Origin: Psammoneis japonica
Lineage: Eukaryota
DNA length: 64,000 nucleotides
Direction: 5' to 3'
NCBI GenBank assembly: GCA_008632985.1
Contig: QPGO01000078.1
Location: 1-64,000 of the forward strand
Each line of letters starts with the position of its first letter. Position 1 is the first letter of the stretch. This document shows positions 9,434 to 52,700 of the stretch, piece after piece. Below the pieces are notes generated by a model that ran no database searches, had not been told where the DNA came from, and saw only the letters and a list, made by a program, of their open reading frames with translations. The position numbers and the translations under genes were made by a program.

Positions 9434-9479
9434 GTCGCAACAATGTATGATGTGAATGTGCCTCTCTAATTGTTCTAGT

Positions 9480-12400
9480 CTAAGATGGTTGTGTGGATCG
9501 CTTCTTTCTTCGTGGGCTGGAGAGGCTGACGATGGAAGAATCGATGCTACCCAGAGTTGAGGCTGACACTTGACCAAGCACTTGGTCCTGCAACTGAGAC
9601 AAGTTCTCGTGCTGTGAGGCGGCAAAGTTGCGGGAACAATCCACAGTGCACTGCTGTCGGCCTCCAGACCTTGACTCTGTTGTCCCATGACAGAACGGCA
9701 TCCTCGTCTGCTTTTTCAGACGAGCCACATCAACCCCGTCCGATGCATGTTCCTTGTCAAACAATTCTTCCTTTCTCTTTTTTCGAGCATCGTAAAAACC
9801 AGGAACCTTGTTGAGATGCTCTCGACCCTTTGTCACCATGGTGAGATGCCAGTCTCGAGCAGCAGCAGTTTCCATGCCCTCAATGGCTACGTCTGCGGGG
9901 AAGGCCCGTTCGAATTTCTGCTTCTGTCGCCGTCCAGGATTCATTTGTTTTATCCTGTCTCTTGACACCTTGCATTCTGCCGAGAGAATTTTTTTAGTGT
10001 GCGCACCTTTTATTTTCTTCATCTCTTTCTTGCTGTCCGACATGTGCTTTTTGACAAAATTGTCACGAGCATCTTCAAGCTCTTCGAGGGTCGCTCGAGG
10101 TGGCTTTGGAAGTGCCTTTTGATTGACGGGGTTGGGGTTGCTCTTGTTGAAGGGATCAGCTTTGTGACAATCAAGGGCAGCCATTTCTCCCAGTTCAGCG
10201 AGGAAGCAGTTCATGGGATCAACTCGGTGCTTCCCTTTTGGCGTCCACATCGCCTGAGGTTCCTCCTTTCCAAGAATTTCCGGTGGGCTATCATGGCGCA
10301 CTCCTAGGCAGTTCACATCCCACAACTGACAGACCATGGTGCAAAACGTACGACCAAGATTTAGAGGCCTGTCACTCTTCGGAATGGAACTCAACAAGTG
10401 TCGCTTCGAGAGACGCCCTGGTTCTTCCTTCAGATTCGTGTTGCGGTTCACATTTCTTGTGGCAATGATTTTTTTCACATTCATCTGCATTCTGATGATA
10501 GAAAGTAACTTCTCAAAGTTAGATGTACATTGTAGCAGCATGGTGCATCAACTTTGTTGACGCACCTGTCAATGCACTCCTCTTTCAGTTTCGAGTTTCC
10601 CAAGTCTTGCGTGCCGCATCCGATTGAGGTGTCCTTCTGTTGGAATTCTTGGTGTCGATCGGCGCACACAACAGCTCCTTGTTCTGTCTTCTTGAACACC
10701 GCAAACTTCTTGAACATGGCTTTGTCTTTTTCAGACATGGTGCACTCTCGCTTTGCGTCTTCCTCGGCGATCCTCATGTGTCCAGTGGCATTTGCAATCG
10801 AAAAAATGTTGGCGGCAACAAACATGTCTCCGTCTCCATTGCCATCCCCTGCATCAGATTCAGCAACTTGGTGCATGATGCACATGAGGGCAGTGTTGAC
10901 ATCACACTCGTTTGTCGACTCTTCCGGGCATGCCGCCATTCACTTCCGGACGCAATCTTGGAGCTCAACAGGAGAGAACTGGATTTTGCCGTCCCTGTCT
11001 AGCTTTGACCCATTCACCCTCATCCATGCCATGACACCAACACAAACATGGGCGTTGAAACACTCAAACAGCTCGTCGTCGTGTTGGTTTGGGTTTGGAG
11101 GATCGCACAGCCACATGACCTTTTTCAAAGTCGGGCGCCATGCCAATGCCAAGTCCTGAAGTCGGATCTTTCCGATGTTCCTCATGCCTCTCCTTTCGGC
11201 GGACTTTTTACCTCAATGGAAACCTCCACAACAAACCAGAAGCATGTCACACACACCGGGGTTTTCAGTCTGCATGGACAACATTTGTGCTCCTGGCTGT
11301 CCATCCACACAGAAACACAAGTGTCCCCCTGCCATTGATGGTGCGTCGGGATTGCCATCCTTCAAAGCACACCAATCCTCGCCTGCGGTGTTCATCCAGT
11401 GTCATGCAGCACATTTTGCTCTCTCTTCCACTCCTTCCTTTTTTTTTGCTGGATTCTCTGGGATGCACGTGTCGGGGAAGGCATTGTTCAAATCGCACTT
11501 GTCCTCACCCTGGACATGAAGGATCCTCGTGCGCAGCTGAGGGGCATTGCAATCAATGAGACGATGCGTGCCACATTCTCCATGACCTAAATTCACATCA
11601 TCAACAACGCATCGTTTCCCTGTCTCAATGATGGTCTTCATTGCCGGAAAGTCCCCAAACAAGTCCATGAAGTTTCGAACCAATTTACCTTTCAGATTGT
11701 GCATGATCGTGCAGCGAGAATCTTGGGGCAAGAGATCTTCCGGTGTGAGTGTCCGTCTTGTTGTTTCCCATCTGTTTTGTTCATGAGAAAGTCCGGCCGT
11801 AAGCTCCTTTGCTTCTTCCTCCTTGTTCACTGTCACCTGCTGGGTTGTGAAATGGTGCATGGCAGTGCACCCGTCTGTGACAAGCCTTTTGTCAAGATTG
11901 TCCAAACTGATCCCCAACTGATCACCTTTCTGAATGTCGAGTTGGCGCACAAATTCATCATCTGCCTCAGCAATGTCCTTGCATCGAACGGAACTTCTTG
12001 AGAGGGAGAGACCCCAATTGTGGAAGCAAAAACTCTTGGTGCTTGACGATGACTTGGAAAGGACCTCTGCTGAAGTCCTTTGGAAAGGCGTTGGTTCATT
12101 GCTCGCAACATTTCTGATGAGCTCTGCGCAGACGAATGCCTTGTTGCGAATTCTCTTTGTCACATCTGTCACTTTTCCACAGTCTTGCTCTCTTGAGCCT
12201 GTCATCAGGTGCTCCATAAAAAGATTCAAGAGGCTCTTGTCATTGTTGGCAAACCCTTGTAGCTCATCTATAGAGCCGTTCCAATGGAGAGCCGGATCTC
12301 GGCATTCCGCTTCAGGCTGCACCAAGAAAGCATGAAGTGCCAAAGCAAGTGAACAAAAATCGGTCTTCACATCTGCAGAGAAACATCCCAACTCAGCTGC

Positions 12401-12877
12401 CCGCAAATTTGCAAAAAACGACCATCCGCGTGCACCAGTGGCAACTCCATCCCCCCCTGTCGCAACTGCAAAAACCACTTCGTTCTTTTGTTCACGCGAA
12501 GGAAGACACAAGAAATCATCAAGAGCTTCAAAGCCATCAATGTCAAAATGTGAGCATGAAGACTCTTGCTGTGTGACTCTAGTGCCAGACTCTCTGCTTC
12601 GTGGCGTAACTGCTCTTGACCCATCGGATTCTCTGGGAGCATTTTCTCGAGCTAGCGTGTCTCGGCAAGCAACGCACTTGTGGCAGTCAGCACGGCTGTC
12701 ACAGCTGGGACAAATGGGCCCTTCACAAAGTCGCTGTGCATGCATTTCTCCAAAGCAGTGCGGGTACAAATGGCACCCACACGGACGCATGGTGAAGCAC
12801 GTCTTGCTCTTCAGTGCTTCTTGACACGCCGTATTTCCACAGCTTTCTGGGGAGGCAGCCTTCCTTTTTGATGACAT
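9480..12877 (-). pseudogene. Large transposase-like protein with N-terminal RING-like finger (DUF6589-like DNxD...DG.P...GGFH...D..QE), fragmented
   Basis: CGCHLYPHC...CPSC, LGISLDNLD, CVDGQP, VCCGGFH and ADRHQEFQQKD occur in order across ORF fragments. Superfamily is uncertain. Confidence 0.55.
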
Positions 12878-13018
12878 GACAATCTTCCACAGTGCCAAAC
12901 AGTCTTCTTGTGGAGTGTGACAAGTGATTGGAGCAGAGGATTGAGCTGCACAACGACTGTGCACTCTCCATCGGACGCAACAGTGTTTGTGGTCATGCAT
13001 CTTTCATCGAGAAAAAAT

Positions 13019-13084
13019 CAAAAAATCAAAATTGCTGCATTTCCAGGTTGCGTGTCCCTCCGCATTTGTGGGGTCCCACTGTGA
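13019..13084 (-). repeat. Right TIR (TpA-mutated)
   Basis: Reverse complement is tcacagtgggaccccacaaatgcggagggacacgcaacctggaaatgcagcaattttgattttttg, 60/66 identical to the left TIR. Confidence 0.92.
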
Positions 13085-14673
13085 GATTGGTGGGTAGACT
13101 GCGTGCCGGTGACCCTTGCCACCTTTCGAGCGGTGAGCATCTTTGTTTTGGTCCAATGCAGCCTGAACCCCTGAAAAAGGGGTGGACAATTTCGGACCGC
13201 CTCGTGCAACACAAGGTTGCTCTTGGTGGCAGTTGTGAGGTTCTTTGGGCACGGGGACAATCCTGCATCAGGGAATGGTCGGACAAATTCATGGAACCCA
13301 CCCCACTGTCTCTTCTCAATGGCCACAAAGAGAGCAATGTCAATCATTGAATCGAGCTGCAGTGAAGAGTTGTCACTGTTGTCAATGACTGTGACAGGCA
13401 ATGAGGACAATCCCTCCTGGATGTCATCACATGCATCAAATGCACCGTGTTCTTCAGCTGCAGGGTCTTCTTCTCAACAATGACACCGGATTGCACCCCT
13501 CCCATCTGACACTTCAGATCCAATTGTCCAATCTTGAAGATGTGTTCCTGTCCTTTCAACCACCCCTGAGCAAGTTTCTTCCCTGCCTTTGTCTGGCTCA
13601 ATGCCTCATGTTTGCTGTTGAGGCATGCCTTGCACTGGGGGTTGTCTTCTGCAGCGCTGGCATTGCTGCGCCGTCTGCCACTGGCTTCTCTGGCAATGAC
13701 CCAACTTCGTCTGGGAGCACTCGGCAATTTGACAGTTGCTGATGGGGTTTGAGTTGCCAGGAGTTGGTGTGGTCATTTGCACAATGCTGTCTGGCAGACC
13801 ATGGTCTGGCTGCTGCATTGTTGATCACAGTTCTCTTGCTTTGATCAACAGCAAAAACATGATGGATTGCTGGTCTCCTTCATTTGTGCTGTGCTGTGCA
13901 GTGCAGAAAGAAAACTGCATCCACTGAAATGAATGACCAAGCCATGGCCCATTGACATTTTGGTCCCCGGCAACAGAGTTGGTGATGGTCATGAGAAGGC
14001 ATCTTTGTCGCCCAAACTTGACTTTGTGCGACACTGACTGTGTGGTGTCAATGTCAGCCCAGGTGGACCAAGACTCAAGAGTGGTCAGTCGCTGCTTTTT
14101 TTGCTCAAATTTGGTGGAACAGCTCTTGATTTGTATGATTTTTCCTGAATTTCACAGTCCTTCACAATGGTGAAAACAACAAGCCACAAAGTCTGTGATG
14201 GAGGTGGTCTGATCACAAACTCTTGTTTGTTTGTGTTCCTTTTGCATCAAAGATTACACACACATCAAAAGTTTGCAGATGCCCCACTGCATTTTCAAGA
14301 AAGATCAATGATTGCATCATCATCATGCTTTGATTGTGGTGCACAATGTTCTCATTTCCTTGTGCAATCCGGTGTGAATGCAAGCAATTTTTGCACTCAA
14401 AAATGAACACTGCAAATGATCTCATTCAAATGCCATGACAATTTTAGGATGAATGCGGCAATGACCCCCTTGATGGTTTTTACATGGGGCCAGGGTCAAC
14501 TTGGAATTAAGGTGGTGCAGGTGCAAAGGTGGGCCAGATTCTGCGTGTGCAGAACTTAGCACATTTTCTACACAAATTGCCAAAGTCACCTTGCCAACTT
14601 GAGCCCTTTCCCAGACGATGGAAACTTGAACATTTCACACAACGAAGTGTCCAGGCTGCTCAGTTTCACTCCC

Positions 14674-14843
14674 CTCAACTTGTTCATTGAGAGAAACTGC
14701 AAGTTTTCATGCATTTTTGAAGATGTGCACTGAGTCCACTGGCAATCAGAAAGGCACCAAAATTGGGAAGTTCAAGTTTCATGGAGCTGTGGCAAATGAT
14801 GAATGCCTGAAAACTTGCAGTTTCTCTCAACAAACAAGTCAAG
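14674..14843. mobile_element. 170-bp MITE-like element with 42-bp inverted arms
   Basis: 14674-14715 and the reverse complement of 14802-14843 differ only by two CA/TG swaps and one transversion. Confidence 0.7.
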
Positions 14844-14859
14844 CCATCAACATGTGGAG

Positions 14860-15830
14860 GTCTCTTTTTGCACAAGCTTGCATTTTTTTAAAACTGGATG
14901 CTTTGCACAAAATGCACGCACTCGTTGCCAAAATAAAAATTTCAGTGACAGGCCCAACTTCCAACTTTGTCCATTCACAACAAGACACCACAGAGTGCAC
15001 AGACAATGGTCATGACCATGCATGATCTTGGACTTGTTGAGTGTGGACATGTCCACAGCCAGTCAAACACCAATTGTTGGCATTTCCTCCTGGAAAGTTG
15101 TGGCTCACCTCCCACAAGCAGTGTGATTTTGGAGAAAAACAGTGGCACTTTGAACCTGACAACTGCACCAAATCCAACAACTGGCATTTGAAGGTTGAGA
15201 AGTGCAGTTCACACACAGGTCTGACAGCCCTGATGGGGGCTGGACAAACTTGCAACAAGTGTTTTGGGGTTCTCAGAGGTGTCTCCGCAAAATGACAAGG
15301 GCAGTGCACGAGAAAATTCAAAATCACAAGCTTTTTGAGAAAACATCTCTGCACATCAATCCTGCCTTGAGGATGGATTGTTCATTTGCGGTTGATTTTT
15401 TATTTGGAGCTTGCACTTTTCCACAAAAACCCGGATTCCTTGCACCAATTGCACGCGTTCACCAAAACAACATTTCAGCAACAGGTCAAACTTTGTCTGT
15501 TTGCAAGACAACACAGAATGCACATGTGATGGTTGCGACCATGCATGATGTGCAGCTTGGCAACTGGGTGTGCAGACATGTCCACAGCTGGTCAAATGCC
15601 AGTTGCTCCTGGCATTTCATGGAAAGTTGTGGCTTGTCCACCACAAGCAGCCAGCCCGATTTTGGCAGAAAATGGTGGTTTGTCACGCACAACAACCAAG
15701 GCAAATGCAACAATTGGCATTTGAAGGTTGACATGGTGTGCAGTTCACACAGAGGTCTGACAGCCCTGATGGGGGCTGGACACACTCATGTGTTTGGGGG
15801 TGCTCAGAGGCGTCACAAAATGATGGTTCT
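14860..15830 (+). repeat. Diverged tandem duplication, unit about 530 bp
   Basis: Shared blocks in both halves, e.g. gaccatgcatgat, gacatgtccacagc, ggaaagttgtggct, ggcatttgaaggttga and ggtctgacagccctgatgggggctggaca. Confidence 0.8.
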
Positions 15831-16177
15831 GTTTTTGCCTTGGACTTAACTGCAGACACCGCATGGCTTGCATTTGTGAACACACAACAAAAGAGTGAGT
15901 GCAACGATCTGTCAATGCACCAGTTTTCTGAACACAATCCACCATGCTTCTGTTCTTTTCATGTTTTACACTGTTGATCACAATGCTGTTCACTGGATTG
16001 ACTGGTGTTGTCATTGTTTGACAAAAGCTGTCATAAAAATGGGGCGCAAATGCTTCAAGGCAAATGCATGAGAGGGGGCATGGGAATTGCCAATGCACCA
16101 TTTTCATTCATGCATTTAGCGTGCACATGTGATGAAGCATCATTTGTGCTTTTTCCCCAGGAACTCACGCTTCCCGT

Positions 16178-16464
16178 GGAACAACATGGCAAAAGGTGGC
16201 AATCCCGGGGAATTTTGGGGATTCCCACGGTGAAACCAAACTGAGCATTAAAAAAAACAGTGCATGACAATGACCCATCCTTCAATTGCTTTCTGCTCTG
16301 AACTTGCAGCTGCACATTGTGGAGCAACATGGCAAAAGGTGGCAATCCTGGGGAATTTTGGGGATTCCCATGGTGAAACCAAACTTGGCTTTAAAAAAAA
16401 ACAGTGCGTGACAATGATCCATCCTTCAATTGCTTTCTGCTCTAAACTTGCAGCTGCACATTGT
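16178..16464 (+). repeat. 143-bp tandem duplication (2 copies)
   Basis: Copies start at 16178 and 16321. Differences include three CG versus TG/CA and one TA versus TG. Confidence 0.9.
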
Positions 16465-16844
16465 CAGTGTGCTTTCATTGACCACTCAGTGGTCTGGTTG
16501 GATGGAAGCTTTGTGCATTTGTCCCATCTGTCCTGTTCATCTCCTGAAGATGTGCAGATGGTCACCTGAAGACAGACGCACTGTTGCACCTGCGTGTCTT
16601 GATTTGTCACACATGCCGGTGGATCACATGGCAATGCTGGCAGCTTCGGCCATTGCGTGGTCAATGATGTGCACACGGGTTGATCTTTTTTCAAGAGTTT
16701 TTGCCCACACCATCTAAACCAGTGCAGCAAGAGGCACTGACTGTGACAACATGGAACACAACTGTCTGGGTTTCTTCTGGCCACTTCAACACTTGAGCCA
16801 GGCATCCTGATCCTGCCTGCATTGCTGTCCCTTTGCTCTGCCAA

Positions 16845-18100
16845 ATGTCAAACTTCAACACCCCAGATGAAGAGAAACAGCAACACCAACATGAGCCTTT
16901 GGATTTGTCTGCATTGCTGACAGCTTTGGAAGCTGGAGATGAAGATGTGATTTCTGTTTGGCAACAACTGGTTGAATTTTTGACTCTTGGAATGGTGCAC
17001 AAGCCAGTCCTTCTGGCAGGAATGTTGGCTTTCTCTGTGGAATTGACAAGAGTCACTTCCAGATCATCACATTGCAAAATGATGGACCTGCTGGACAGTG
17101 AGTGGATGACATTTTCGGAAGCCAACTTTTCCATGGTGTCACAAAATTGGGAGGCTTTCATTGGCCAGAGAATGGCTCTTGATGCCAATGTTGCAACTTT
17201 CTTCAACACAACCAGACAAGAAGCCCTTGACTTGTCCACAAGCATTTCCAAAAGCCCAAATTGAATGCTGGTAATGGCTTGACACCTGTGCAATTGTGCT
17301 TGTTTGACAAGATGGCAAACTTTGCAGACAAGGTGCATTCATGTCCCAAAAATGGTGAAATTAAAAATGCTGTGCTTGGATTTACTGGCGTGCAGCTGCT
17401 GCTGTGCTTGGCATGCCATCTGAGACTCAACAAGACAGGCTTGCTTTCTGCAAAGCAGTCTGTGGGAGTGTCAGAGAAGGAAATTCATCCGCAACACCGG
17501 CCTCTGGGACAAATTGGCCCCCTTCAATTTGCTGTCATTTTTGAGAAAGAGGAGTGGTTTGACAAGAAACCTGGTGTTGTTGTGTTGCCAGTGATGGAGG
17601 CTGATCAAGCCTGGAACTGGAATGGTGGCCATGCAAGATTGTCATCATGTGTGAGGATGTTGCCAGAAAAGCCAGCGCTTGAGCCATTGCAAGCAGGATT
17701 GGTCTAACGTTGATGAGCCGAACCCAATTCAAGATGCAAGTGCTGGCAACATCAGAAAATCAGCCTCACTTTTGTGCCACGTAACCAAAGCATCAGCCTT
17801 TTTCTTGGAACACAAAAACAGGCCTGATGGTGGAGGGGGTGCTGTGCTTTGGAGAAAGTTCCATGTTGAACTTGAAATGACTTGACTCACCTCAGCTGTG
17901 GTGATGCATCTCCTCCCAGAGGACAACCTTTGAGGCAGGATCTTGGTGGTGATCCCCAGAGCAGAGTGTCCAGAAGGAAAGATTGTGGTGATCAAGGTGA
18001 AGACATCATTGCAGTGCACCCAGACCCGTTGCTGCTTGCTTCCAAGTCATCTGTTGACTGGACTTGATGCTTCCATTTCCCGATGATGGCAGAAGCCAAG
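16845..18100 (+). pseudogene. Degenerate copy of a diatom hypothetical multigene-family protein
   Basis: WFDKKPGVVVLPVM...WNGG and HPDPLLLASKSSVDW resemble a recalled diatom family. Frameshifted and mutated. Confidence 0.3.
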
Positions 18101-18888
18101 CCATCTGAAATTCCAGCAACAGGAGACTGCCTTGATGACACAATTTTCCTTCCAATGAAGCATCCAAAGCATCAGTTTTCTTGAGCTTGTGTTGGATTGA
18201 ATCCATTGCATGGCAATGCCTCTTGCCACCACTGCAGAAACTGTTCAGTTGCAGCAGCTGATTGTTTCTGCTCTCACGGCTGCTGCCATTGTCCCTTGCA
18301 TGCAGGTGCTCCATGTGGACTCAAAAAGGCTGTTTTTGACTGACTCCTTCTCCAATGACTCACTCAAGAAAAAACTCAAATGACGACAAAGGATGGCCTC
18401 TTGTTGTTGATTGCAAGCAATTGGATGATTTTTGTGACAGTTTGATCAGTTGTGAATGCTTGACTGGTCCCCAAGATTGTGCACTTGAAGGTTTTGCAAA
18501 GATTGAAGAGGCACTTGAGAAAACTGCCAGGAACTTTTGTGCTTGAATGTCACCAAAATGCCACACTTTTGTGTGCAATTCATTTGTTTTTGCCTCTCCA
18601 TCTTCCTCCCTTGTGGTTGCACCCATCTGTTCTGATGACTTGGCATCCCACGTTGTGTGGCTGGAGCAGGTTGCAAGCAGATGAGACATTGTGTCATGAA
18701 AAGACAAAATGTCCAACAACATCGATTGTGCCACTGCAGCCCAGCACAGACTTGCTGTCAATGACAATGGTGGAACACAAGAATGTGGGAAAGCATGTGG
18801 CATCAAGAAGAAGATTGAAGTCCAGATGGTCTGTCAATTGCCACAAGACACTTCAGAGAGTGGAAGGCTGAATGCTTGCACACCGATG

Positions 18889-21800
18889 TGTGACATGGTC
18901 TTCAACACATTCATGCATCAACATGCCTCAAGCTGTGAGACACAAACACCCGACAAAAGACCGCCATCAATGAATGGGCCAATCACAGATGACACAACAA
19001 TTTTGAAGTTTGCCAAACAGCTGTTTCTCATTGTCTCCATGAACCAAAAGAGCATCTGCTGTTTGCCTGCAAAGACTTTGAACAATGGCATCAAGAATGG
19101 CTGAATTGTTTCACCAAACTCAGAGGAAACCACTGATTTAAAGATGATCCAGTGTGGGGTGAGATTCTCTCATGCTTTTGATCATTTCAAGAGTTGACTG
19201 GAGATGATGTGAAGGAAATCAATGAGAGCACATGGTTGCATCTGGGCTCAGTGCAGTGGAAACAGACATCCCAAGCAATGAAACCTGCGTTGTTGCCACC
19301 AATCTTGACAGGAATGCTGTCAATGATGGAATTTTCAAGAAGGTGCCAGAAGAAACACATTCAAAATCTCTTGCACAGCCACCTCCTCCAACCCCCACAG
19401 CCACCCATTGGCCATGTGGTCCTGCTCTGAGAGCAAGCAACAACCTCAAATGGGAAAAAAGTGGAACACCAGGTGCAAGCATGTGGATTTTCAAGATCAG
19501 ATGTCCAAGGACATTTTGTCTGCAGCCTGTCCAGATGCTCATGTCAAGCAAGCTGGGGATGAACCAACAGGCATGTGGACTCACTTTTCAAGCTTTCCCA
19601 TGGCCATTGCCCTTTCTGATGATGAGCCTCAATGAGAACATGGAGATGAAGAAAGCCAGTGGCACTGTTGACATTTTTGAGGTTTCTGTGGATGATTCAG
19701 AGTTGATGAGGTCAGGAGTGATGGTCATTGGGTGAGGTCAGCCTGTGTTTTACAAGTTGAGTCCATTGTCTTGAGGCATCTGCTCATGAGAAAAATGCTT
19801 GTTTCATGTGGCTCCAAGGAGAGAAACCGGTGTTGTCAACTTTCCTGTTGCTGTGATGGGTTTTGTTTGCAAGAAAATTCTAAGAATCAGTCAGAGGATG
19901 TGTCACAGATGACCCAGTTCCCAGCTTTTGTGCTGCAAGACAATGGCTGTGCACCACAAGCTCCAGCAGGGGGAGAGCACAACTGTGAGTCTGGTTTTCT
20001 CAACAACTTTGGCTGCAGAGACAACTGGGTTCTTGTGGTTCTGTCTAGAGTGACAACAAGAAAGGGACGTTGTGCATTTGCTCAGTGCAACCTCAGCTGA
20101 TTGACAGCACCCTGAAAGACCTTGGCTTTGTCAACAAAAATGGCTCTCCTTGGAAGGGCATGACCACCAGAGATGCTCCTGCATTGTCTGTGTGTCTCAT
20201 TGGGCCCAATTTTGGCAGCCCAAAATTTGATTGTGATCTCAACTGTCACTTGGTCATGGGCAAAGCAAACTTCCTGGAGAAGTCTGCTTGACCTGAAATT
20301 GCATGCTCAACTCACCAGTTGGCTTGTTTCACCACCAACATGAAGCTGTCACACAGAGCAGCCCTCAAAGACAAAGGACACTGACTCAGGACACAACTGA
20401 CCAAACAGATGGTGAAGGGGGGCACCTCTCTTGAGGTTGTGCAATGCAGCACAGAGGACAACAATTGCAGCAGGCAGACAACAAGATGTGCTAAAGATGC
20501 ACATTGTGAGAAGATTTCGCAGTTGACTGGAGATGACATTTTGACCTGATGGTCATGTGTGTCACTCCAATTGCTGTTGCCAGAAGACTCAGTGGATGTT
20601 TCTTCCAGAAGTGGAGATTGATGACCGGAAGCATCATCCACAAATCAGCCTTGGTGTTTGACTCATGACTCTCCCTCTCAAACAAGAAGAGAAGGAGGAC
20701 AAACAGTCACCAGCTCATGAGGGCTTTACGACCAATTTGGAATGGATCAGCAGCCAATCCTTTGGCAAACTGGTCGGCAAGCCAGGCAGCAGAGCTGACA
20801 GGCTCAATCTTGATCTCTAAAGCTTCAACCTCATGTGAAACCATTGGTGCAAAATGCTGGTGCACTTGGTTCATGGGGACAATTTAGGCACAAAAGCAAA
20901 TTGGAGGCAAGCAGCATTGTCTTCATGTGCAACAGATCATGGCAGGTTGGCAGTGTTGATGGGTGAGGCATTGGCACCATTGTTGGCCTCTGTGGGAATG
21001 CCTTGGAGTGGGCAGTTGCCTCATTGCAAGCACCCGGTTGCACAAAGACATGCGTGTCAATTTCTTTCAAGATCTTGCAAAGGGGGATGAGATCACACAT
21101 TGCTTGGGAAGAGTGCAACACACTTGGCTTCCATTGCAGAAAGTGCTGCCAGGGTCTGCAGCTTGGACACCCAGATGATGGGACATCTCAATGGATGACA
21201 TGACCGGTGCATGACTTGACAGAAGTGGGGGTTTGTCCATCTTCAGTGCTGAAGAGTCCTGCAAAATGAGCATCAACACAACAATCATGCCAATGAACAG
21301 CAGCAGTGGGTGCTGGGATGAGACCCTTGCATGTCAGCAGTGTCCTTCAAGCACCAAAGAATGCACTTGATGGCAACAGCATGGGAGGCCTTGGGAGCAA
21401 AGGTAAACCAAGCAACTTGGTGGGCAGTGCAGGCAATGTCTGGGCAGCTGTTGGATGCCAGACACATCAACATGCCAACCATGGAGTGACAGTCACAAGG
21501 TTCATTGAATGGCAGGCCTTCAGAATTGCTGTCAACAGGTGCAGGAAGTGCAGGAGCAGGAGCTCCATTGCAGTTTTCCATCTTGGCGGTGTGCAGCACT
21601 TTCTCAATTGGGCCAGGTTGGGTTGGCAGGAATTGGCTGTCCTTGAGTTTCTGGATTTTGACACCCAAAAAGTCACCAACTTTGCCTTCATCATGCAGGT
21701 TGAAGACATGGCATTGCTCATCATTGGAGACACCCAATTTGGCAATCTCAGCTTCAAGTTCTTCAGATGATGCTCTGGCAAATGCCTCTCTTGAGGTTGT

Positions 21801-22900
21801 GCAATGCAGCACAGAGGATGACAATCGCAGCAGGCAAACAACAAGATGTGCCAAAGATGCAAATTGTGAGAAGATCTCACAGTTGACCAGAGATGACAAT
21901 TTCACCCAACGGTCATGCATGTCACTCCAGCTGCTGTTGCCAGAAGACTCAATGGACATTTCTTCTGGAAGCAGAGGTCAATGACCAGAAGCATCATCTG
22001 TGAATCAGACTTGCCATTTGACCCATGACTCACTGTGTTCAGGGCCCACCTGACAATGTCAAGAGCTTTGAGTGCTTCATGGATGCTGATTTCTGTCAAG
22101 TGGAGTGGAGCCCCTCTGCACTGGTCATCAAAATTGCAGACCCAGTTGGCCCTCAGCAACAGTGAGAGCAAATGCTGTCTGGCCCTGTTGGCTGCAACTT
22201 GGCACATGAAGGCATCTGTGCACCTGTTGAAAGAGATCAACAAGGTGCATTGTCCAGCAACAATCATGCCAAGCGTCTGCTTCAATTTTTTTGAAAAAAC
22301 TTGGCTGCACTCAAAATTGCAAAGGTGCCAAAGATGAGGCCAAGAACATGTCATGTCAACAACATCTGCCACCATTTTCACTCTGAGGATGCCAGCGGAC
22401 ATTTGCCAATCAAGGTCATTGGCATCAAGCTCCAGCACACTGACTTCTTGACCAAAATGCCAGACCCATCAATGTTTGTGCACCAACTTGACCTTTCACA
22501 TGAGGAAGTGTGACATTGTCTGTGCACTCAAGCATCAACATGCCTCAAGCATGAAAACCCAACAAAAAACCACCATCAACAAATGACGAGCCAATCACAG
22601 ATCACACAACAATGACAAGAATGAGGCATCTGGTTCAAATCAAGAATGGAGCATGCTTCCATTCTTCTTTTGTGCAATCAAGAACTTCTTGTTGTTGACA
22701 AGCCTTTGCACTGTGTTCATCTGCATTGGCTTTGGCACAAATGCAAGGCACTTCTTGTTTTCATGCTCTTCTGGTTGAATGTTGGCTGGCACAGTTCTGA
22801 TTCTCACAATTTAGAAATTGAAGAATCTGATCACTGCTTGGTTGCCTTTGCTGTTTTATGGCTCCATGGTGCAAACTGCCACAAACCCTGAACCAAGCAT
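18889..22900 (+). mobile_element. Ty1/copia LTR retrotransposon remnant A (RT + RNase H), internally deleted
   Basis: LTR-like direct repeats start at 18889 and 22509 (tgtgacat...gcatcaacatgcctcaagc...gccaatcacagat). A purine tract gaggaag precedes 22509. RT: QPQLIDS.LKDLG...GKANFLEKS..PEIA. RH: DADF, GAPLHWSSKLQTQLALS, PKMRPRT.H, DFLTK. Right end is approximate. Confidence 0.8.
20398..22032 (-). mobile_element. Ty1/copia remnant B nested in reverse orientation inside A
   Basis: ~250-bp direct repeats (about 20424-20672 and 21783-22032) flank RT (DEGKVGDFLGVKI...MVGMLMCLASNSCPDIA..AHQVA.F) and the RH end. A purine tract gagaggg abuts the downstream LTR. Confidence 0.8.
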
Positions 22901-22919
22901 TTGACTGCCCATGCTGCCC

Positions 22920-23335
22920 ATGATGTGTCATCCCAAACCACACATGACCAAGTCTTCCACATGTGCAGTGCATGTGAACATGCATTGCAAACAAATTCTG
23001 CAATGGAGTGCTCCATGTGTTGCAAGCTAACTCCACAACAGACTTCTCTGCAACTGTTCCATGCCAGCATCCCAAATTGTGCATGACCAAGTCTTCTGCA
23101 TGCACAGAGTGTGTGGAGATGCACTGCAAACTGATTCTGCAATGGCCCACTCCATGTGCATTGCAGCCAATTCTGCAACAGACCACTCTGCAACAGGCTG
23201 AGATGGAATTGAAACTTCCAGGTGCAGGTGCAGAGTCATTCTGTGCTGACATCCCAAATGATGCATGACCAAGTCTTTCACATGTGCAGATCATGTGGAC
23301 AGCATGTGTTGCAAGCCAACTCTGCAATGAGCTGC
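22920..23335 (+). repeat. Degenerate tandem repeat (three catgaccaagtctt-anchored units)
   Basis: Motif at about 22944, 23082 and 23264, each followed by similar ttgca...ctgcaatg sequence. Confidence 0.7.
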
Positions 23336-24226
23336 TGCCACCTCCAAGTGTCCATGGCTGTCATGCTTGTTGACCAAAGTCTTCTCCAACTTGTCAGTGC
23401 ATTCATTCACCAGCACAGCTGCTGCATTTGTGTGGGGAGCAACCTTCTTTCCCCTTGGCTTTGCAACAGCACCCAGCAAGTCCTTCTTGCAGAGAGCTCC
23501 TGCTGTTTTGGAGGCAGCGGTGGCTTCTGAGGCAGTGCCAAAATGTGATCAGGTGCAGGGACCGGCAGTGTTGTCAGCTTGGTGTGCGGCGTGCATTGGA
23601 GCTTTGGCCCTTTCTCTGGATGGGTCCCACTCTGGAGACACTGTTGACGAATCTTGTGACAAAATCTCATCATGACAACTTGGAGCCCTTCCCAGAGGGG
23701 TGTGAGAGCATGACAAGCTGCTGCCAGCTCTCATTCAACTGAGCTTGTTTGATGTTGCACTGTTTTTATTTTTGCTTTTTTGTGCATTGCAGTGAGCAGA
23801 GCAACTGCAGAAAAAAATCAAAGTTTACATGGGGCACCTGTGTGCAAGGGACAATGTGTTTTTCATGCATGAGCTGGGGACAAAAGGCAAAAGGGAGAAA
23901 GGCAGGAAAACGCACAAAAAAGGTGCACACCATGCTTCTGAAGCCTGATGGAAGCACATGACATGGGCAGGAGGAGGGGAAAATGGGAAAAGAAAGTTTT
24001 TGTTTTTCACACAACTGCCACACCAGCAGAGGCCTGTGCAGAGTTTCTGCTGGATCAACGTTTGTGATGATTGGTGATTGGTGCCATGCAGTGGTGTGAG
24101 GCTGAATGTGGGCCGGCACTTTCAACACCGGAATGGCATTGAATCACATTGTTGTGATTCACAAACAAGAAGAAGCCAACTCTGCCAGCAACAAAAAGGA
24201 ACACAGTTGGATGAACAACATCAAAC

Positions 24227-26900
24227 ATGCCCAAGACTCCTCCTTCCAAGAAGTCTGCTGCTCACTCTGAGAACTGCCCTCCTTCTGGTGGAAGTGGGGT
24301 CACATCATCACCTCAACCTGCAGACCCAACTGCCGTCATGGACAAACATCAGAGTTGCCACAGAGATGAGGAAAGAGATGGTCCCAAGAAAGATTTGGAG
24401 GAGATGTTCACTGATTTGGAGGAGATGGCCACCAAGATGGTTGCCAAGGAAGATTTGACAAAGAAACAAGATGGGCCAAAAGAGTGGGAGCTCTTTGTTG
24501 AAGACAAGGTGTGCTCTCCATGGTGAGGCACAAATTTGGCAACAATTTCAGCAAAAGGTGATTGCTTTGCCATCAAGTCCATCCATGATGCAATCAAGCT
24601 ATCTCCAAACAAGCTGACCACAGCAAAGTCCCCGACAATGGTTCAAAGCTGGATGACCGTGTTTGTGTGGTGAATGTCATGGCCAACATTTTGGAACCTT
24701 TGGTTGATTCTTCAGCAAAATTGGCAGTCACGGCTGTCTGGAAACAATTGCAAGATGATTTTTTTGGTGATGTCACATTCAAGGACAAAAAGAAGAAAAT
24801 TTACAATGCAAAACATGCATTGAGAATCAGGGGTCACTGCAAGTTGAGCTTTGGCAGCACTGTTTGGGTGGTCAAAAAACTCAGCAACACATCAACGGTC
24901 CAGGGTCAAGAAGAAGACAAGGCTGCCAGAAAGAAGATGACAGAAGGCCAGTTCAAAAGAAAGCTTGAAGGATCCAGTGGGTGCTCCTCAACAACAAGGA
25001 CAATGTGCTGACACAATGTGAGGGACTGGGAATTTTGTTCTGCACTGTGCTGTTTCCACTGTCCCTGAGGATTGCAAAGGCAACAAAGATGCCATCAAAT
25101 TGTGGATTGAAAACAAGTGTGACATTTTCAATTTCAAGAAAGAAGTGGAGTGTGACCTTCAGCCAAGGGTTGAGCTGATCCATCCATGTGCAACTGTCCA
25201 TTGTGGTGAAATCAAGTTAAAGATCAAACACTGCAACAAGGCCAAGCTGCAGATGGCAGAACAAGCTCAGCTGAATGAGTTTGCCCTCAACACCTCTTTT
25301 TGGGAATGAACCATTCGTGAGCATCATCAAGAAAGGACATCTCTTTGTTTTGGAAGCTGCCCATGGTGATCAGCAAACAACTCCACAGGTCAACAGCAGC
25401 ACTTGTGTGTTTGCACACAAAGTCAACTGATTTTTCGTTTGTGAAGGATGGCATGGAGCAAGGTGCAGCAAGCAGGGTCTGCAGCATTGATGTCAATGAA
25501 AAAAGGATGCATGGCAATCAGTGCATGTTGTCAGTCAAATGTCATCTCCAGTTGCAACTGAAAGTCTTGGAGACTGCCACAGCAATTAGATTCTTGTTTG
25601 CTGGATCAACAAGCCAAAACATGACAGACAAGATGGCCCTGAGATAAGGGTCAAGAGTGCACAGAATGTGTGAACAATCTCATGTGTCACTTCATCACAT
25701 CTCAGACCTGGTCCATGGCATTGCAAACTGCATTTGGAAGAAAGTTGCCAGGAAGCCTGTGAATGGTTCAGTTGATTTCTTGGCAAGGATTGGAGTCAAA
25801 GGTGGAGCAGCACCCATTCCTGTCTGTGCCAAGAAGCCAAGTTGCTTGTGCTTTTTGACATCCTTGGCAGACAACTGCCCTTGCTCTTCTTTGGTGATTC
25901 CAAAGGAGATGATGCAGGAGAACCTTGCTTCTTTGAAGCAGAGTCTTCATCAGAGGACAATTGGCAAGCTGAAACAGGACACAACAATCCCCAAATGGAC
26001 CTGGCTTGCCACATGTGGTCGGCAAGTTGGAGACACATTGGCGCTCACCAAGCATTCCAACCTGGAGAGCACATGAGAGCTGACCTCCTGAACAGCACAG
26101 ATGGCTTTGCAATGCTGGGCAACACTGCCCAACTCAAAAAATGTCCCAGTGACAGTTTGGACATTGTTGGGCACACCAGCGGCAATCTCACAAGTGTTGC
26201 CACAGCTCTGGATCCACTTGTGTCTAGAGACACCAAAGGCTGCATGACAATGATGCAAAATCAACTGCCAGAGCACAGCATTGTCAACATTGTCAGCAAG
26301 AACACTGGGTGCAAGGCAAAAGTTGCCAATGGCAACAACCACATTGTTGCAATCACGTGCTTGACCCTCAGTGTGCAGCAGCCTTGGAGAGTTGTCAGAC
26401 ACATTGACTGAGAAGTGCTGAACAAGGTTGCAATCTTTTTCAACAATCATGTTCCAAACTCTGCACCACATCCACAATGGGGCAAGGAAGCTCAAATTGT
26501 TGGTGGTCTTTGACAAGAAAGAATCAGTGGATGCAATTGGTGGTCAGTCATCAAAGGAGAAGCCATGAGTGCAAACCAGGGGTGCCTTGTTGACCACACT
26601 TTGGGGGACAAAGATTGATGACTTGATCAAAAATGGACATCAAAGCACAGACATTGAGGGCAGCAAGATGATCTAAGATGGACCAAGAGTTGCCTGAACC
26701 TGACTTGACTGCTGCTCCAATCAACCAACAAAAACTGAGTTGAAAGTGGCCACAGTCATTGCCACATGAGCGCCAGCTGCTTGCAACAGAAGGCAAGGGA
26801 ATGACACAGTGCCAGGCATCCTTGACTTGCCTCTTCACATCCCTTTTCTTCCAGGTTTCAAGGGAAGCAAAGTTGCCAGCAAAAGGTTGATGAGGGTTGC
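24227..26900 (+). pseudogene. Unassigned degenerate TE ORF (gag/ORF1-like)
   Basis: Chain of + strand, protein-like, Tyr-poor ORF fragments starting MPKTPPSKK. No diagnostic motif recognised. Confidence 0.3.
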
Positions 26901-27329
26901 CTCTGACTTGGCAGCCATTTCAGAGGAGAACAGCAGGCAGGAGTGGCCATTGCCAGAAGGTTGGTGGTGCCAAGAACCCACCATGTGACCAGAGAATGTC
27001 CTCTTGGTGCTCAGTCATGATGCTCACCCCACTTTCACCTGTCACCTATCACATGTGACAAGCCCAGTTCTCATTGTCCCTCAGCAGCTTGCCAATGATT
27101 GCAGTGAACTCAAGTTCACCAGTGGCTTTTCTTGAGTGATTTGGGGTGCAGTGGTCTTTTGCATGCATTGGTTGTTGTCCAGGCAGTGTTTGGATTAGGA
27201 ACATGTGGGATTCTCTCCATGAAAGGCTCACAATCTTTGAAGCAGTGAAAGATTGTCTGTTTTGTTCTTTGACATGATTTTGTTGCTGGCTGCATTGCTG
27301 TTCACTTGCTTTGTCAGAGCTGTGAACAC

Positions 27330-28080
27330 AATGAGGATTGGTGTTGTCTCTGTGACCCCTGTGCATTGTTGTTCAAGCATGGCACAACCTTGGCATTTCT
27401 GCACTCTGTCAAATTTGCATTCCAGGGTGTGTGAAAGAGAGTGTCAGGGCCAACTGTCAACAACAAAAACTGAGTCTAAACAGAACACTCACCTGCATTG
27501 GCAGTGAGGGTTTGACATGAGAATCCCTGCCAGCAAATGGCACCACAACCTTGACACATCTTGCACTTTGTCAAATTCATGTTTGGGGTGCACAAAGAGG
27601 GTGCAGAGCCAGCTGACAACAGAAAAACTGAAACTCAATGAGAACACTCACCTGCATTGGTGGCTGCAGGAATCCTCAACAGCAAATGTGATGTGCTGTT
27701 GTTCAAGCACAACACAACCTTGCTGTGTCCTGCACTCCATTAAATTTGTGTTCCAGGGTGCATGGAAGAGTGTGTCAGAGCCAGCCAACAACAAAAAAAC
27801 TGAAACTCAAAGAGAATGCTCACCTGCATTGGTGGGAACAATGCGAGAATCCACAGTGGCCCAGCAAATGATGTGATGTTGTTCATGCATGACACAACCT
27901 TGACATGCCCTGCACTCTTTCAGATTTAAACTCTGGGGTGTGCAAAAGAGAGTGTCAGAGCTGACCAACAACACAAAAGCTGAAAGCCAGTGACAATGCT
28001 CACTTGCATCAGTGGTGAGAACAATGCCAGAATCCCTGCCAGCAAATGGCACATTGTCACTCAAGCATGACACAACCTTG
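27330..28080 (+). repeat. Minisatellite of ~165-180-bp units (about 4.5 copies), resuming at 30107-30350
   Basis: Recurrent cacaaccttg...gtcaaatt...gtgtcagagc...aaaactga...ctcacctgcattgg. Confidence 0.85.
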
Positions 28081-28199
28081 ATGCACCGTGCATGCCACCC
28101 AATGCCACTTCAACCACTCTGCCAATTTCTGCAGCCAGCATCATCTGACTCTGCCAATGAATGATCTTCATCAAGACAATCCTTCCTCACATGCCCAAC

Positions 28200-30106
28200 C
28201 TTGTTGCATTTCCAGCATTTAATCTGCTTTTTCTCACTCTGTGCAAAACTTGTGCCCTTGTTTTTTTGTCAGTCATGCAGGTGCTGTCCAACACCTGCAG
28301 TGCCTCCTTGGCTGAATTGAGACAAATGTCAACCCACAGTGCAAACTGTCAATGCAGGTCTTTGAAGACATGCCAGCATTCCTCAGCACATTCCATTGGC
28401 GTTGCCACCAACAAACTTGTTCCTTTCTTTGTTCTGGGTGTCATCAGCACCCTTGCCAAACCCATCTTCTTTCTTGGCAATTTCTTCTGATGATCCTGCC
28501 ACAGGACATTTCCACCATCTCAACAATGCTCATGAACGAATCACAGTGATCTTGAAGCGCCTCTCCCTCTCATTTTGATGGAATGAGCACCAACTGTTTC
28601 CAAGCCTTGGCTGCCTGGACATGTGGGCACATCTTCTCATTTGCATTGAACAAGATCAACTTGCAAATTTTCAACAGTGCTGCTTCTTCATGACTCTCAT
28701 AAACTCCATGCTGCTCCTCCAGTCTTGTGACAAACAGCCTTTGCACATTGTCCCATGATTGTGCCAAACACCTCTGCCTTCTGTGCCTTGCAGATTGTGC
28801 TCTGTTTCACATGGCAATTGTGTTGCTTGCCCCAGACTGCCTTTTCCTTCTCCAACATGGTGTCTCCCAGTGGATGCTCTGGATCTTTTGGTGGCATGCT
28901 CTCCTGCCCCAGAGATGCCAGCAAGTGCATCTCCGACCCAAACAATCTTCCAACATGCTTGCTGATCTTCCTCGTGGTTTCCATGCAACCATCTGCCTGT
29001 CATCTGAACTCAGCAATGGAGTCACACACCTGCTCCTTTAATTCTTTTGTGCTTCCATGCTCAGCTGTGTCCTTGCCCATGTTTTTTGGGACTCATGTCA
29101 AAGCATCATGGCTTGCCAGCAGCTTTGTGCTTGGTCTCATCAACCCTGACACAACCTTGCCGCTTGCCATGCCCTCTTTTTGCATGCAGACCCTTGACAG
29201 CTTCTTCAACAGCAAAGCCCTCCAGAGATCATTTCTCTGCCCTCATCAAGCTGGCTTGTTTGCCACAGTCCATCAACATGAGACATGCCTTTGGACTCCT
29301 GTTGACTTTTCCCCCAGCCTTTTTCTCTTTGGATTCCTGATGTCTTCCCAGCCTTTGCCTCTGGATTCCTGATGACTTCCTGGCCTTGGAATGACACCAC
29401 TTGTTTGAGTGTTGTGCTGTGACTTTTTGGTTTCTGTGTTGAAGTTTCATGGCTTGCCGACTGGCACCATGTTCAGTCCTGCTGACCCATGCTCCTCACC
29501 AAGTGGCTTGCAACAAACACACTCCAAATGCTGCCAACCACCATCACCATGTCAACCAAGTGCAGAAGCTAAAAATGAGCACAAGACCCACAACTCAAAC
29601 TGAGTTGCAAATGTAAGTTTGCCATGTTGTTCGACACATTCCAGCCCCAGGTGGGACTCCATGTGACATTGGGCCCGCAGAGTTCTGCCTGTGTGAGCTC
29701 TGCAGCAAAATTGTCAAGCAATGAATGTGTGGATGGTCGCCAACAGAATGAGAGGCAATTTTGAAAATCTCTCCTCTTTTGCACTTGAAGTGCATCATTG
29801 ACAGCATGCCTCTGAGTGTGTTCTTAAGACATCAAAGAACATGCCCAGCCTGTTTTCATTGCCACAAATGCAGAAAAAATGGAGAGCCTTTGGCTTTGCA
29901 AAAGAGAGCACGAAACAATTTCACAGAAAATCACACAGAAATCTGTGCACACTGCATGCAGCATGATCCAAAAAACTCTTGATGTCACACAAGGTCCCAC
30001 CAGAGCTGGAGTGTGACCGTCCACAATCATGCCAGCGCATCTTGCACCGCAACCTTGTGTGTGTCTGTCATGCAAAACTGCCTCCAACCCCAACATTCCA
30101 ACAACA
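28200..30106 (-). mobile_element. Copia remnant C: 5' LTR (30106-29662), PBS-like site and gag fragment
   Basis: Minus strand reads TGTTG...TCACA, followed directly by TGGAGTCCCACCTGGGGC. Gag-like QADGCMETTRKISKHVGR...EKAVWGKQ...KAEVFGTIMGQC. Confidence 0.65.
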
Positions 30107-30350
30107 GAAGAGTGTCAGAGCTGACTGACACCAGACAAACTAAAACTCAGTGAGAATGCTTGCCTGCATTGGCTGTGGGAACAATGTGAGAATCCCTGTC
30201 AGCAGCAAATGATGTGCTGTTGTCCAAGCATGACGCCCCTGCACTCTGTGTCAGTTTGCACTCTGTCAAATTTGCACTCTGGGGTGCACAGAAAAAAGTG
30301 TGGTCGAGCTAACTGACAACAGAAAAGCTGAAACACAATGAGAATGCTCA
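30107..30350 (+). repeat. Continuation of the ~170-bp minisatellite
   Basis: agtgtcagagctgac...gcctgcattgg...gtcaaatttgcactctggggtgcaca. Confidence 0.8.
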
Positions 30351-31984
30351 CATTCTGCATCAGCATTGGGCTTTCAAAACTCGAAACACAAAGCTGAAGA
30401 TGGCACAACTCTGCCGCTGCCCAGCAGCAGTTTTCAAACAAAGAAATGACATTTCCAAGCAACCAAGGCACAGAGAAGATGATGAGCCACTCTGAAACAC
30501 AGAAAATCAGCAGAGTGACCAAGAAAACACTGGGCAGGCAATCTTGGGATGGAATGCCATGGCCATGATGAAGTGGCGGTTGGATTTAGCGAGCGTTGAG
30601 CGAGCAGCTCGTGTGCGGTGCCCTTTATTTGATCGAAAAGGTTTTCTTCAAGTTGGAGCCACGAACAGAGGTCTCCTATCTGTTCTTATTACGGACATTG
30701 GGGCAACTAAAGTCTCACGCAAAGTCATTTCAAAAAACAAGCATAGACTATAGACAGTCATAGTCGCAGTCATCATCTTTCTAATGTGCAACTATGACAG
30801 TCATTATTCCAGTCATAGTGCAATGCCATTGCTAATTTTGTCGATACACAACTCTATCTACTCTCTACTACAGTACAGTATGTAGCTACCGCGACCGGTA
30901 GAGTAATAAATACGCAACAAGCACGAGACATAACAGTTCTGCAAGAAAACATTCCGAAAAATTTGCGAAGGCATCATTCTGAATTACCATTGTATAATAT
31001 ACGACTTCTTCCAGATTCGACACTGTCGGTGTTCACATTGCTTTTTGTTCAGTGATTGTACGTTTGACAAGCCTGTGTGTTGAAAACGAGCTTGATTTCT
31101 GACGCCGCCTGATGCTTCAACTAACCAATGGCTTTGCCCGGCCTCATTTGACCTCTGTCTTGTAGATCCAGACAATCCACAAAAAAAATTCGCGTCTGAT
31201 CAACCACGTATCGATCTCCACCCTTCAGCTTCTCATTAATCGTGACCTGTGCCGCACATTGGTGAGATTCTAGCGCACTCGAAAAGCGTCTCGGCATCAC
31301 TCGAATAGACCGTAACGGGCATCGTTGTTTACCCTGTTTGGATGCGATACGCGGATACACGTGACACCAGCGTAGAGTTTGTACGAGATTCTACGACAAT
31401 TTGAACCACGAAAGTAAGTCTTTTTTGAAACCGAAGCCAGTATGACCCAAGAAGTATGACAGGTATTTGATTGTGGAAATTTGCCCGGCACTTCGTTTGT
31501 CTCTTACAGGTTTACTTTGCTCCCCTAAAGCCATTGTGTCTTTCAGTAAGTACAAGTATCGTTATTTCTGTTACTCTAGAGGTGCAGGATGGGTGTGCTC
31601 AGCTCTGTAAGCTTTGTCCTTTGATGACCTTTTTCGACACAGACAAGGCACCCTTGTCTCTCTCGAGAAACACTCTTTTGATACATCGTGACCCCTTTTC
31701 CCGTACCATACTATTGGTGAGATATACTGACACACTTGACTGCAACGAAGCGAAAAAAGGCCGAAATTCCCTTTGGCGGATCCCTGACTCGACACTTAGG
31801 CGTACATACAGTAGAAAGTGCGCGGCGCTATACGGCAAACTTCAACCAACTCCGGTGAGTCTGTTTTGAACCGGATCATTCTGACACTGTTTGCACTGTA
31901 TTGTCATAACGCTAAACTGAAAGTTCTATCCTTGATTTCGCCTCTTTTCAATTCAGACAAGCTACGAACATCCGATTTTGAAGT

Positions 31985-46959: not shown

Positions 46960-52700
<5,741 letters not shown>

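Follow-up and report, generated by a model that had tools for sequence, protein, structure and literature searches.

The closest described counterpart of the pattern reported here comes from the chlorarachniophyte Bigelowiella natans (Rhizaria), in whose mutation-accumulation lines two integrated viral regions were found to be hypermutated (Mettrop et al., bioRxiv 10.64898/2026.01.13.699255). According to the accessible part of that preprint, the changes are almost exclusively A→G or T→C and fall only on TpA dinucleotides, with a rate in some lines of ~1e-7 to 1e-6 per site per generation. The same source reports 324 TpA-depleted coding sequences, enriched for DDE and reverse transcriptase (RT) domains, as well as 124 genomic depletion clusters; it gives thresholds of TpA ≤0.43 and CpA+TpG ≥1.52 and an observed-to-expected ratio (rho) of 0.45 for the nucleocytoplasmic large DNA virus (NCLDV) region, and it proposes an ADAT2-like adenine deaminase as a candidate (10.64898/2026.01.13.699255). 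In the literature that we consulted, this preprint is the only description of TpA-directed hypermutation, and none concerns diatoms. In diatoms, CG methylation of transposons is brought about by DNMT5a, and many species also possess a DNMT4, related to RID and of unknown function, as stated in the accessible text of a further source (PMC9998398). Here, we analyze a stretch of 64,000 nucleotides (contig QPGO01000078.1, positions 1 to 64,000 of the forward strand; hereafter, the window) that contains the remains of Ty1/copia-type retrotransposons. We put at about three in four the probability that two dinucleotide-specific transition processes acting at the DNA level, TpA hypermutation and CpG decay, have run close to saturation in the block that holds a dead copia pol fragment.

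The analysis started from an original prediction, made from the letters of the window, that a conserved copia motif can be restored by reverting transitions at TA and CG dinucleotides:

20241 to 20330, plus strand: 30 codons of a conserved copia pol motif, in which relatives read ..YRSVIGKLNFLEKSTRPDIAYAVHQCARF and eight sites are altered by TA→TG, CG→TG or CG→CA changes

The codons of this segment are AAC TGT CAC TTG GTC ATG GGC AAA GCA AAC TTC CTG GAG AAG TCT GCT TGA CCT GAA ATT GCA TGC TCA ACT CAC CAG TTG GCT TGT TTC, and its translation, NCHLVMGKANFLEKSA*PEIACSTHQLACF, is exactly the one that had been given, including the critical codons TGT, CAC, TTG, ATG, TCT-GCT, TGA, TGC and TGT. The 90 bases contain neither TA (0 versus 6.3 expected from base composition) nor CG (0 versus 4.8), next to 11 TG and eight CA. 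An exhaustive HMMER search with positions 19491-20712 of the plus strand as the query retrieved 149 relatives at E≤1e-3, including four at E≤1e-10, and every one of them aligns across the stretch holding the motif. At each of the eight altered sites, the majority residue of these relatives is the one that had been proposed as ancestral:

Site 252: Y in 132 of 147 relatives, C (TGT) in the window
Site 253: R in 95 of 146 relatives, H (CAC) in the window
Site 254: S in 93 of 148 relatives, L (TTG) in the window
Site 256: I in 121 of 148 relatives, M (ATG) in the window
Site 266: T in 110 of 148 relatives, A (GCT, after TCT) in the window
Site 267: R in 124 of 148 relatives, a TGA stop in the window
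Site 272: Y in 98 of 146 relatives, C (TGC) in the window
Site 279: R in 115 of 144 relatives, C (TGT) in the window

The agreement extends to the codons. Metagenome contigs scanned with an alignment of 31 of 157 relatives yielded 78 loci, and the motif was found in 69 of them (72 instances, 64 distinct DNAs). All of the proposed ancestral codons are present among these 64 DNAs, namely TAT (35), CGC (14), TCG (7), ATA (9), ACT (11, with the preceding TCT in 12), CGA (13), TAC (23) and CGT (6). Intact relatives encoding Cys, His or Met at these sites, which the original prediction had named as the observation that would speak against it, are close to absent: in this set, obtained with a pattern that needed an intact motif, the window's residues (C, H, L, M, A, stop, C and C) occur in 1, 2, 0, 0, 0, 0, 0 and 0 of the 64 DNAs. 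The claim that only TA and CG transitions separate the motif from its ancestor holds at the eight sites, but not for the motif as a whole, since five further differences within the 30 codons (A259, E269, S273, T274 and L277) are not of this type. The last four are each found in some intact relatives, and A259 stands against a Leu in 64 of 64.

The relatives are Ty1/copia polyproteins of ~1340 residues that carry PF07727 (RVT_2) and come from aquatic metagenome contigs. In one of them (P0013), gag_pre-integrs spans residues 282-340 and RVT_2 residues 854-1085, this being the only relative in which the order of gag_pre-integrs before RVT_2 was seen. A family profile, built from 15 long polyproteins out of ~180 relatives, and a self-BLAST of the window delimit the remains as follows:

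20085 to 20405, plus strand: copia pol fragment A, part 1, with the RT end and the RT–RNase H connection (profile positions 1027-1127, E 6e-21)
20425 to 20671, plus strand: copy 1 of a 247-bp direct duplicate
20710 to 21782, minus strand: copia pol fragment B, from a second copia family, lying inside fragment A (profile positions 980-1308; relatives read ..GMLMYLSANTRPDIAY..)
21785 to 22031, plus strand: copy 2 of the 247-bp direct duplicate, 84% identical to copy 1
22049 to 22483, plus strand: copia pol fragment A, part 2, with the RNase H region (profile positions 1133-1300)

The 90 bases are thus best explained, as judged from this homology, as part of a dead Ty1/copia-type pol fragment within a 17-kb transposon graveyard. 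The assignment to copia pol stands, whereas the label "RT motif" is loose, because the segment lies ~30 residues past the end of Pfam RVT_2, in the RT–RNase H connection. Neither the family profile nor tblastn with 157 relatives recovered gag, integrase or the RT core upstream of the motif. The full order of gag, protease, integrase, RT and RNase H was not found within one element, the copies in the window being fragments, and self-BLAST (E≤1e-10) detected no direct repeat pair, and hence no flanking long terminal repeats, bracketing 20-22.5 kb except for the internal 247-bp duplicate.

The same signature pervades all three remnants (fragment A on the plus strand, fragment B on the minus strand and the RNase H part of fragment A). 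When these were aligned to 157 relatives, 127 columns qualified as conserved (at least 20 relatives aligned, at least 70% of them sharing one residue), and conserved Tyr and Arg were kept in 0/13 cases, as opposed to 83/114 for other residues (Fisher p=2.7e-7). None of the six conserved Tyr is retained (five are Cys, one is TGA), nor is any of the seven conserved Arg (two Cys, one His, three Trp, one TGA), and fragment B shows the same pattern of Y→C/H and R→C/H/W/stop changes. Twenty-five of the 44 changed conserved columns can be explained by one transition, and 20 of these 25 transitions lie at TA or CG: seven A>G after T, one T>C before A, seven C>T before G and five G>A after C. The other 24 of the 44 comprise five transitions in other contexts, eight single transversions and 11 changes that need at least two steps. 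TA and CG transitions therefore dominate the decay but do not act alone. Some of the changes of other types in fragment B reflect family differences, because most relatives belong to the family of fragment A.

At the scale of the window, the loss of TA and CG is confined to transposon-like blocks with borders that are sharp at a 250-bp scale:

13251 to 30500: doubly depleted block holding the motif, TA rho 0.05 (57 versus 1209 expected), CG rho 0.13 (120 versus 954), TG 1.90, CA 1.81
47001 to 52500: second doubly depleted block, TA 0.03, CG 0.22
60751 to 61750: third, short doubly depleted block, TA 0.01, CG 0.22
501 to 2900: block depleted in TA only, TA 0.13, CG 0.67, holding a 793-residue open reading frame (ORF; 633-3014, minus strand)
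8251 to 13250: block depleted in TA only, TA 0.14, CG 0.66, holding minus-strand ORFs that lack Tyr
54751 to 59250: block depleted in TA only, TA 0.14, CG 0.73, with an 885-residue Tyr-poor ORF

Together, the six blocks cover 35,650 of the 64,000 bases, with TA rho values of 0.01-0.14 and TG and CA values of 1.26-1.90, as compared with TA 0.52-0.61 and CG 0.98-1.05 in host-gene regions; for the host genes next to the main block, the values are TA 0.57 and CG 0.98. Their GC content (0.47-0.52) is close to that of host DNA (0.45-0.50). The main block ends abruptly on its right side at ~30.5 kb; the adjoining interval 30751-31000 has the highest TA density among the windows examined, with 25 TA in 250 bp. 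Diverged tandem or dispersed repeats (68-93% identity) occur inside the block at 14875-15823, 16176-16464, 27360-28083 and 30108-30360. Within the main block, the share of TG in TG+CA is 0.500, and no significant over-dispersion is seen in bins of 250, 500 or 1000 bp (p 0.07-0.16), so that both strands must have been hit equally and in no long one-strand runs; the three remnants, each read on its coding strand, have TG:CA counts of 56:59, 162:133 and 68:77. The TA dinucleotides that survive are unevenly placed, since 60/71 of those in the doubly depleted blocks lie in NTAA or TTAN contexts, versus 319/866 in host DNA and 40/94 in the TA-only blocks. Either a preference of the hypermutation for certain flanking bases or recent new mutations may lie behind this bias.

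The TA-only blocks, which sum to ~11.9 kb, demonstrate that the loss of TA and the loss of CG are two separable processes rather than one. They contain three long ORFs:

633 to 3014, minus strand: 793 residues, DUF6729-like
11402 to 13003, minus strand: 533 residues
56673 to 59330, plus strand: 885 residues, resembling 3'-5' exonuclease/DUF6729 proteins

Tyr accounts for 0-0.4% of the residues encoded by the ORFs of these blocks, as opposed to 1.7-4.4% in host ORFs, and their Arg content is normal. Pfam returned nothing for the three ORFs beyond a weak 3'-5' exonuclease match. ESM Atlas comparisons (scores 0.84-0.92), which serve as leads only, point to DUF6729/exonuclease and Mutator-like transposon proteins, the score of 0.92 belonging to the likeness of the 793-residue ORF to DUF6729-type, Mutator-like proteins. 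For this ORF, seven relatives were found (E 4e-111 to 2e-17). Among its conserved columns (at least four relatives aligned, at least 75% agreeing), Tyr is kept in 0/9 (four C, three H, one K, one S), versus 9/12 for Arg, six of them encoded by CGA or CGT. The earlier suggestion that the process strikes DNA transposons as well as retroelements is borne out by this loss of all nine conserved Tyr, to the extent that the transposase-type family assignment, itself a lead, is correct. As some transposon-like blocks have lost TA and kept CG, and no 1-kb window shows the converse, the TA process appears to be the faster or earlier one, or to have more targets. The genetic code adds a further regularity: a change of TA to TG or CA never creates a stop codon, and among the changes at CG only CGA→TGA does. 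This rule fits both the long open, Tyr-free ORFs of the TA-only blocks and the read-through translation of the doubly depleted region (P0001), in which 28 of 30 stops are TGA. Because TA→TG/CA changes cannot make stops, the openness of the Tyr-poor ORFs need not imply function.

The direction of change can be read without any protein argument from the 247-bp duplicate, the two copies of which bracket the opposite-strand fragment B. The differences between them are dominated by adjacent TG↔CA doubles (~11 cases), as expected if an ancestral TA or CG, being palindromic, was hit on one strand in one copy and on the other strand in the other, and at other sites one copy has kept CG or TA where the other has TG or CA. 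Together with protein conservation and the opposite-strand copia remnant, this pair supports the proposed direction from TA and CG to TG and CA. A normal target-site duplication is much shorter than 247 bp, and the pair perhaps arose when a unit of 1360 bp was partially duplicated in tandem.

The mechanism that we favor for the TpA component would convert the A of TpA to G, which reads as T→C on the other strand, so that TA ends up as TG or CA. It would thereby erase all Tyr codons (TAY→TGY or CAY) and alter ATA, NTA and T|A codon junctions, and it would be catalyzed by an enzyme of the DNA adenine deaminase type, as has been proposed for B. natans. For the conversion of CpG to TpG or CpA, the simplest candidate would be the deamination of 5-methylcytosine in CG-methylated transposons, a decay expected to leave codons for Cys, His, Trp or Gln, or a TGA stop, in place of the CGN codons of Arg. 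The TpA process would act earlier or on more targets than CpG decay. The identity of the enzymes, adenine deamination on the one hand and 5-methylcytosine deamination on the other, and a role in genome defence are what we infer from this end state.

Other explanations would account for part of these observations. A single machine of dual specificity, RIP-like or a deaminase acting on both the A of TpA and the C of CpG, would explain why TA and CG are lost together, within identical sharp borders, in three blocks and why no block has lost CG without losing TA. ADAT2-type enzymes are indeed reported to deaminate A and C in DNA (cited in the accessible part of 10.64898/2026.01.13.699255), and the DNMT4 of many diatoms is related to fungal RID (PMC9998398, accessible text). 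Yet such a machine should not have left three blocks with TA at 0.13-0.14 and CG at 0.66-0.73, nor an ORF without any of its nine conserved Tyr that keeps six conserved CGN Arg codons intact, and Tyr loss with Arg retention recurs in environmental relatives, including P0126, P0098, P0131 and P0012; we therefore regard this explanation as unlikely. Far less probable still is hyper-editing of retroelement transcripts at the RNA level, from A to I and from C to U, which would become heritable once the transcripts were reverse-transcribed and re-inserted. ADAR-type enzymes favor an A that follows a U (10.64898/2026.01.13.699255, accessible part), and the conserved Tyr columns of the copia remnants became Cys five times, through A→G on the coding strand, and never His. 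However, this idea is already largely refuted by the balance of TG and CA in the block and on the coding strand of the remnants, the equal depletion of the non-coding parts of the 17-kb block, the occurrence of both Y→C (four) and Y→H (three) in the DNA-transposon-like ORF and the independent hits on the two local copies of the duplicate after duplication.

The possibility that the pattern arose during sequencing deserves separate consideration. A long-read basecaller that miscalls modified bases of silenced transposons (5-methylcytosine in CG, a modified A or T in TA) would, once its errors are fixed in the consensus, account for sharp, transposon-limited blocks and for transition-like changes at palindromic dinucleotides, and the ~1% differences and small indels relative to the contigs of a sequencing run (X1) are such as an unpolished long-read assembly might show. 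These contigs, taken from Logan and 97-99.5% identical to the block, nevertheless contain the same sequence free of TA and CG, at a k-mer depth (~45-55) comparable to that of the flanking host DNA (46.9). Relative to the window, the X1 contigs differ mainly by transitions (A>G 93, T>C 93, C>T 80, G>A 81, each transversion class 11-20). Some of these are TG↔CA doubles at neighboring positions, not TA or CG; TG and CA do not form long strand runs, and the remnants also hold transversions, frameshifts and truncations. Tyr-free copia relatives are, moreover, present in ENA, JGI, MGnify and Logan assemblies. The source was looked up for 10 of the 157 relatives, P0098 not being among them; conserved Tyr and Arg are kept in 0/8 and 12/15 cases by P0126 (Logan) and in 2/12 and 19/21 cases by P0098, and P0131 (MGnify, JGI, ENA) keeps none of four conserved Tyr. 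On the evidence of their sequences, these Tyr-poor relatives from other public assemblies provide independent support against an artefact, which we consider very improbable. Most remote of all is the idea that the blocks represent foreign or compositionally odd DNA that never contained TA or CG, as a result of selection or donor composition. UpA and CpG are both reported to be avoided by some viruses and expressed RNAs (PMC3829696), but homology polarizes the changes in the window: Tyr or Arg residues shared by up to 89% of the 149 relatives are replaced by Cys, His, Trp or stop, TGA stops interrupt the reading frames, and the rho values of 0.01-0.05 in the doubly depleted blocks lie far below those of the 78 loci of relatives (0.31-0.98).

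Where the window and X1 differ by TG↔CA doubles, within 13001-32000 at, for example, 13774/5, 14755/6, 16051/2, 17931/2 and 19231/2, the two may represent alleles or paralogues that received separate hits, a hint that the process was active once these had diverged. In the wider family, 84 relatives have at least four conserved-Tyr columns; eight of them keep half or fewer, the median fraction kept being 0.86. Whole-locus TA rho reveals a partial and ambiguous depletion in a few of the 78 loci (L072, L071), a set from which the scan for intact motifs could not recover saturated copies. Locally, the partial depletion lies at 1501-3500 of L072 and at 2501-3788 of L071. From these sequences, the TA process may be visible in other aquatic eukaryotes.

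Several observations weigh against the reading as two near-saturated transition processes. The mechanism is deduced from an end state, and with 24 of the 44 changed conserved columns not attributable to TA or CG transitions, ordinary decay must also be large. Only the C-terminal ~280 residues of pol (profile positions ~980-1308) are detectable in the window, even with the family profile, and Pfam assigned no family at E≤0.1 to the three read-through translations (with X at stops). The block at 47-52.5 kb shows a mild over-dispersion of TG versus CA (p 0.006-0.036), as does host DNA. The accessible text of the B. natans preprint never mentions CpG, so that the CG component has no counterpart there (10.64898/2026.01.13.699255). 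As to the sequencing runs, X1, which stems from the same sample as the best-matching run and whose library type is not on record, may be the source data of the assembly itself, so that its match to the block is not independent support; no RNA run was among the matches listed, and two further runs (X2, X3) contain next to none of the words of the block. Finally, the assignment of the host is based on a single gene.

This gene encodes a PP2C protein:

62234 to 63688, minus strand: PP2C gene

Its named relatives, at 33-53% identity, are exclusively diatoms (Mayamaea, Fragilaria, Phaeodactylum, Cylindrotheca, Entomoneis, Fistulifera, Attheya and Thalassiosira), whereas its best hits, which lie outside this named set, are at 58%; as judged from this protein the host is most likely a diatom. 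Elsewhere in the host DNA, 32975-46842 of the plus strand is occupied by consecutive long ORFs in differing frames with tiny gaps, which encode beta-helix, EGF/teneurin-like, He_PIG and fn3 domains and probably belong to a single giant gene for an extracellular protein, interrupted by short introns or by frame errors of the assembly. A 1772-residue host ORF at 41524-46842 (fn3, DUF7507) includes tandem repeats at 44644-46059 with a period of ~96-108 bp, 81-87% identity, a GC content of 0.548 and a strong negative GC skew.

The 2026 preprint on B. natans, a rhizarian, is the one earlier report of TpA-directed hypermutation; its accessible part describes the process at work on two viral insertions, together with a modest long-term signature. 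The window presents the TpA process at saturation in a host of another supergroup, with Tyr-free, stop-free proteins as its product and cleanly separable from CpG decay. It is conceivable, if at present somewhat doubtful, that a TpA-specific, strand-symmetric A→G hypermutation of DNA represents a widespread and possibly ancestral genome defence of protists of the Stramenopiles–Alveolata–Rhizaria (SAR) group that also operates in diatoms. It would then form a first line of transposon inactivation that erases Tyr codons without creating stops, precedes and is independent of the decay of methylated CpG and, owing to its flanking preference, leaves TAA and TTA behind. Were this general, diatoms and perhaps other SAR algae would possess a RIP-like defence of opposite chemistry, directed at A rather than C. 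Such a system would account for old transposons that escape homology-based annotation, as illustrated by the failure of Pfam here, and a simple genomic test, combining TA rho with a search for Tyr-free ORFs, could be used to map it across eukaryotes and to search for the enzyme.

Among the known systems, the TpA process matches hypermutation of the B. natans type, as far as a comparison of patterns can tell. Both change A/T to G/C at TpA, yielding TpG and CpA (eight of the 25 single-transition changes in the remnants have a TA context), both form kilobase-scale clusters depleted in TpA and enriched in CpA+TpG, and both affect foreign or transposon-derived targets, here copia remnants and DUF6729/exonuclease-like ORFs, while sparing host genes. 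They differ in that the present host is a diatom-like stramenopile, that depletion is saturated over ~35.7 of 64 kb (rho 0.01-0.14 versus 0.45) and visible only as an end state, and that the older-looking blocks have lost CpG as well. Fungal repeat-induced point mutation (RIP) shares the confinement of transitions to repeats and transposons, the sharp borders, the dinucleotide context, the destruction of coding capacity and the independent hits on duplicate copies. However, RIP changes C to T mostly at CpA, makes TpA and stops and lowers GC content, whereas here TpA is depleted ~20-fold, GC content is unchanged and the TA process makes no stops; RIP was therefore rejected, since it creates the very dinucleotide that is destroyed in the window. 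The CpG decay driven by 5-methylcytosine in the methylated transposons of vertebrates and plants (those of diatoms being CG-methylated; PMC9998398) would have in common with the doubly depleted blocks the change of CG to TG or CA, the CG rho of 0.13-0.22 and the CGA→TGA stops, but leaves the loss of TA unaccounted for. ADAR-type editing, in turn, resembles the TpA process in changing A to G with a preference for a preceding U or T; it acts, however, on RNA and in a strand-specific manner, whereas the changes in the window extend to both strands, to non-coding DNA and to a DNA-transposon-like ORF.

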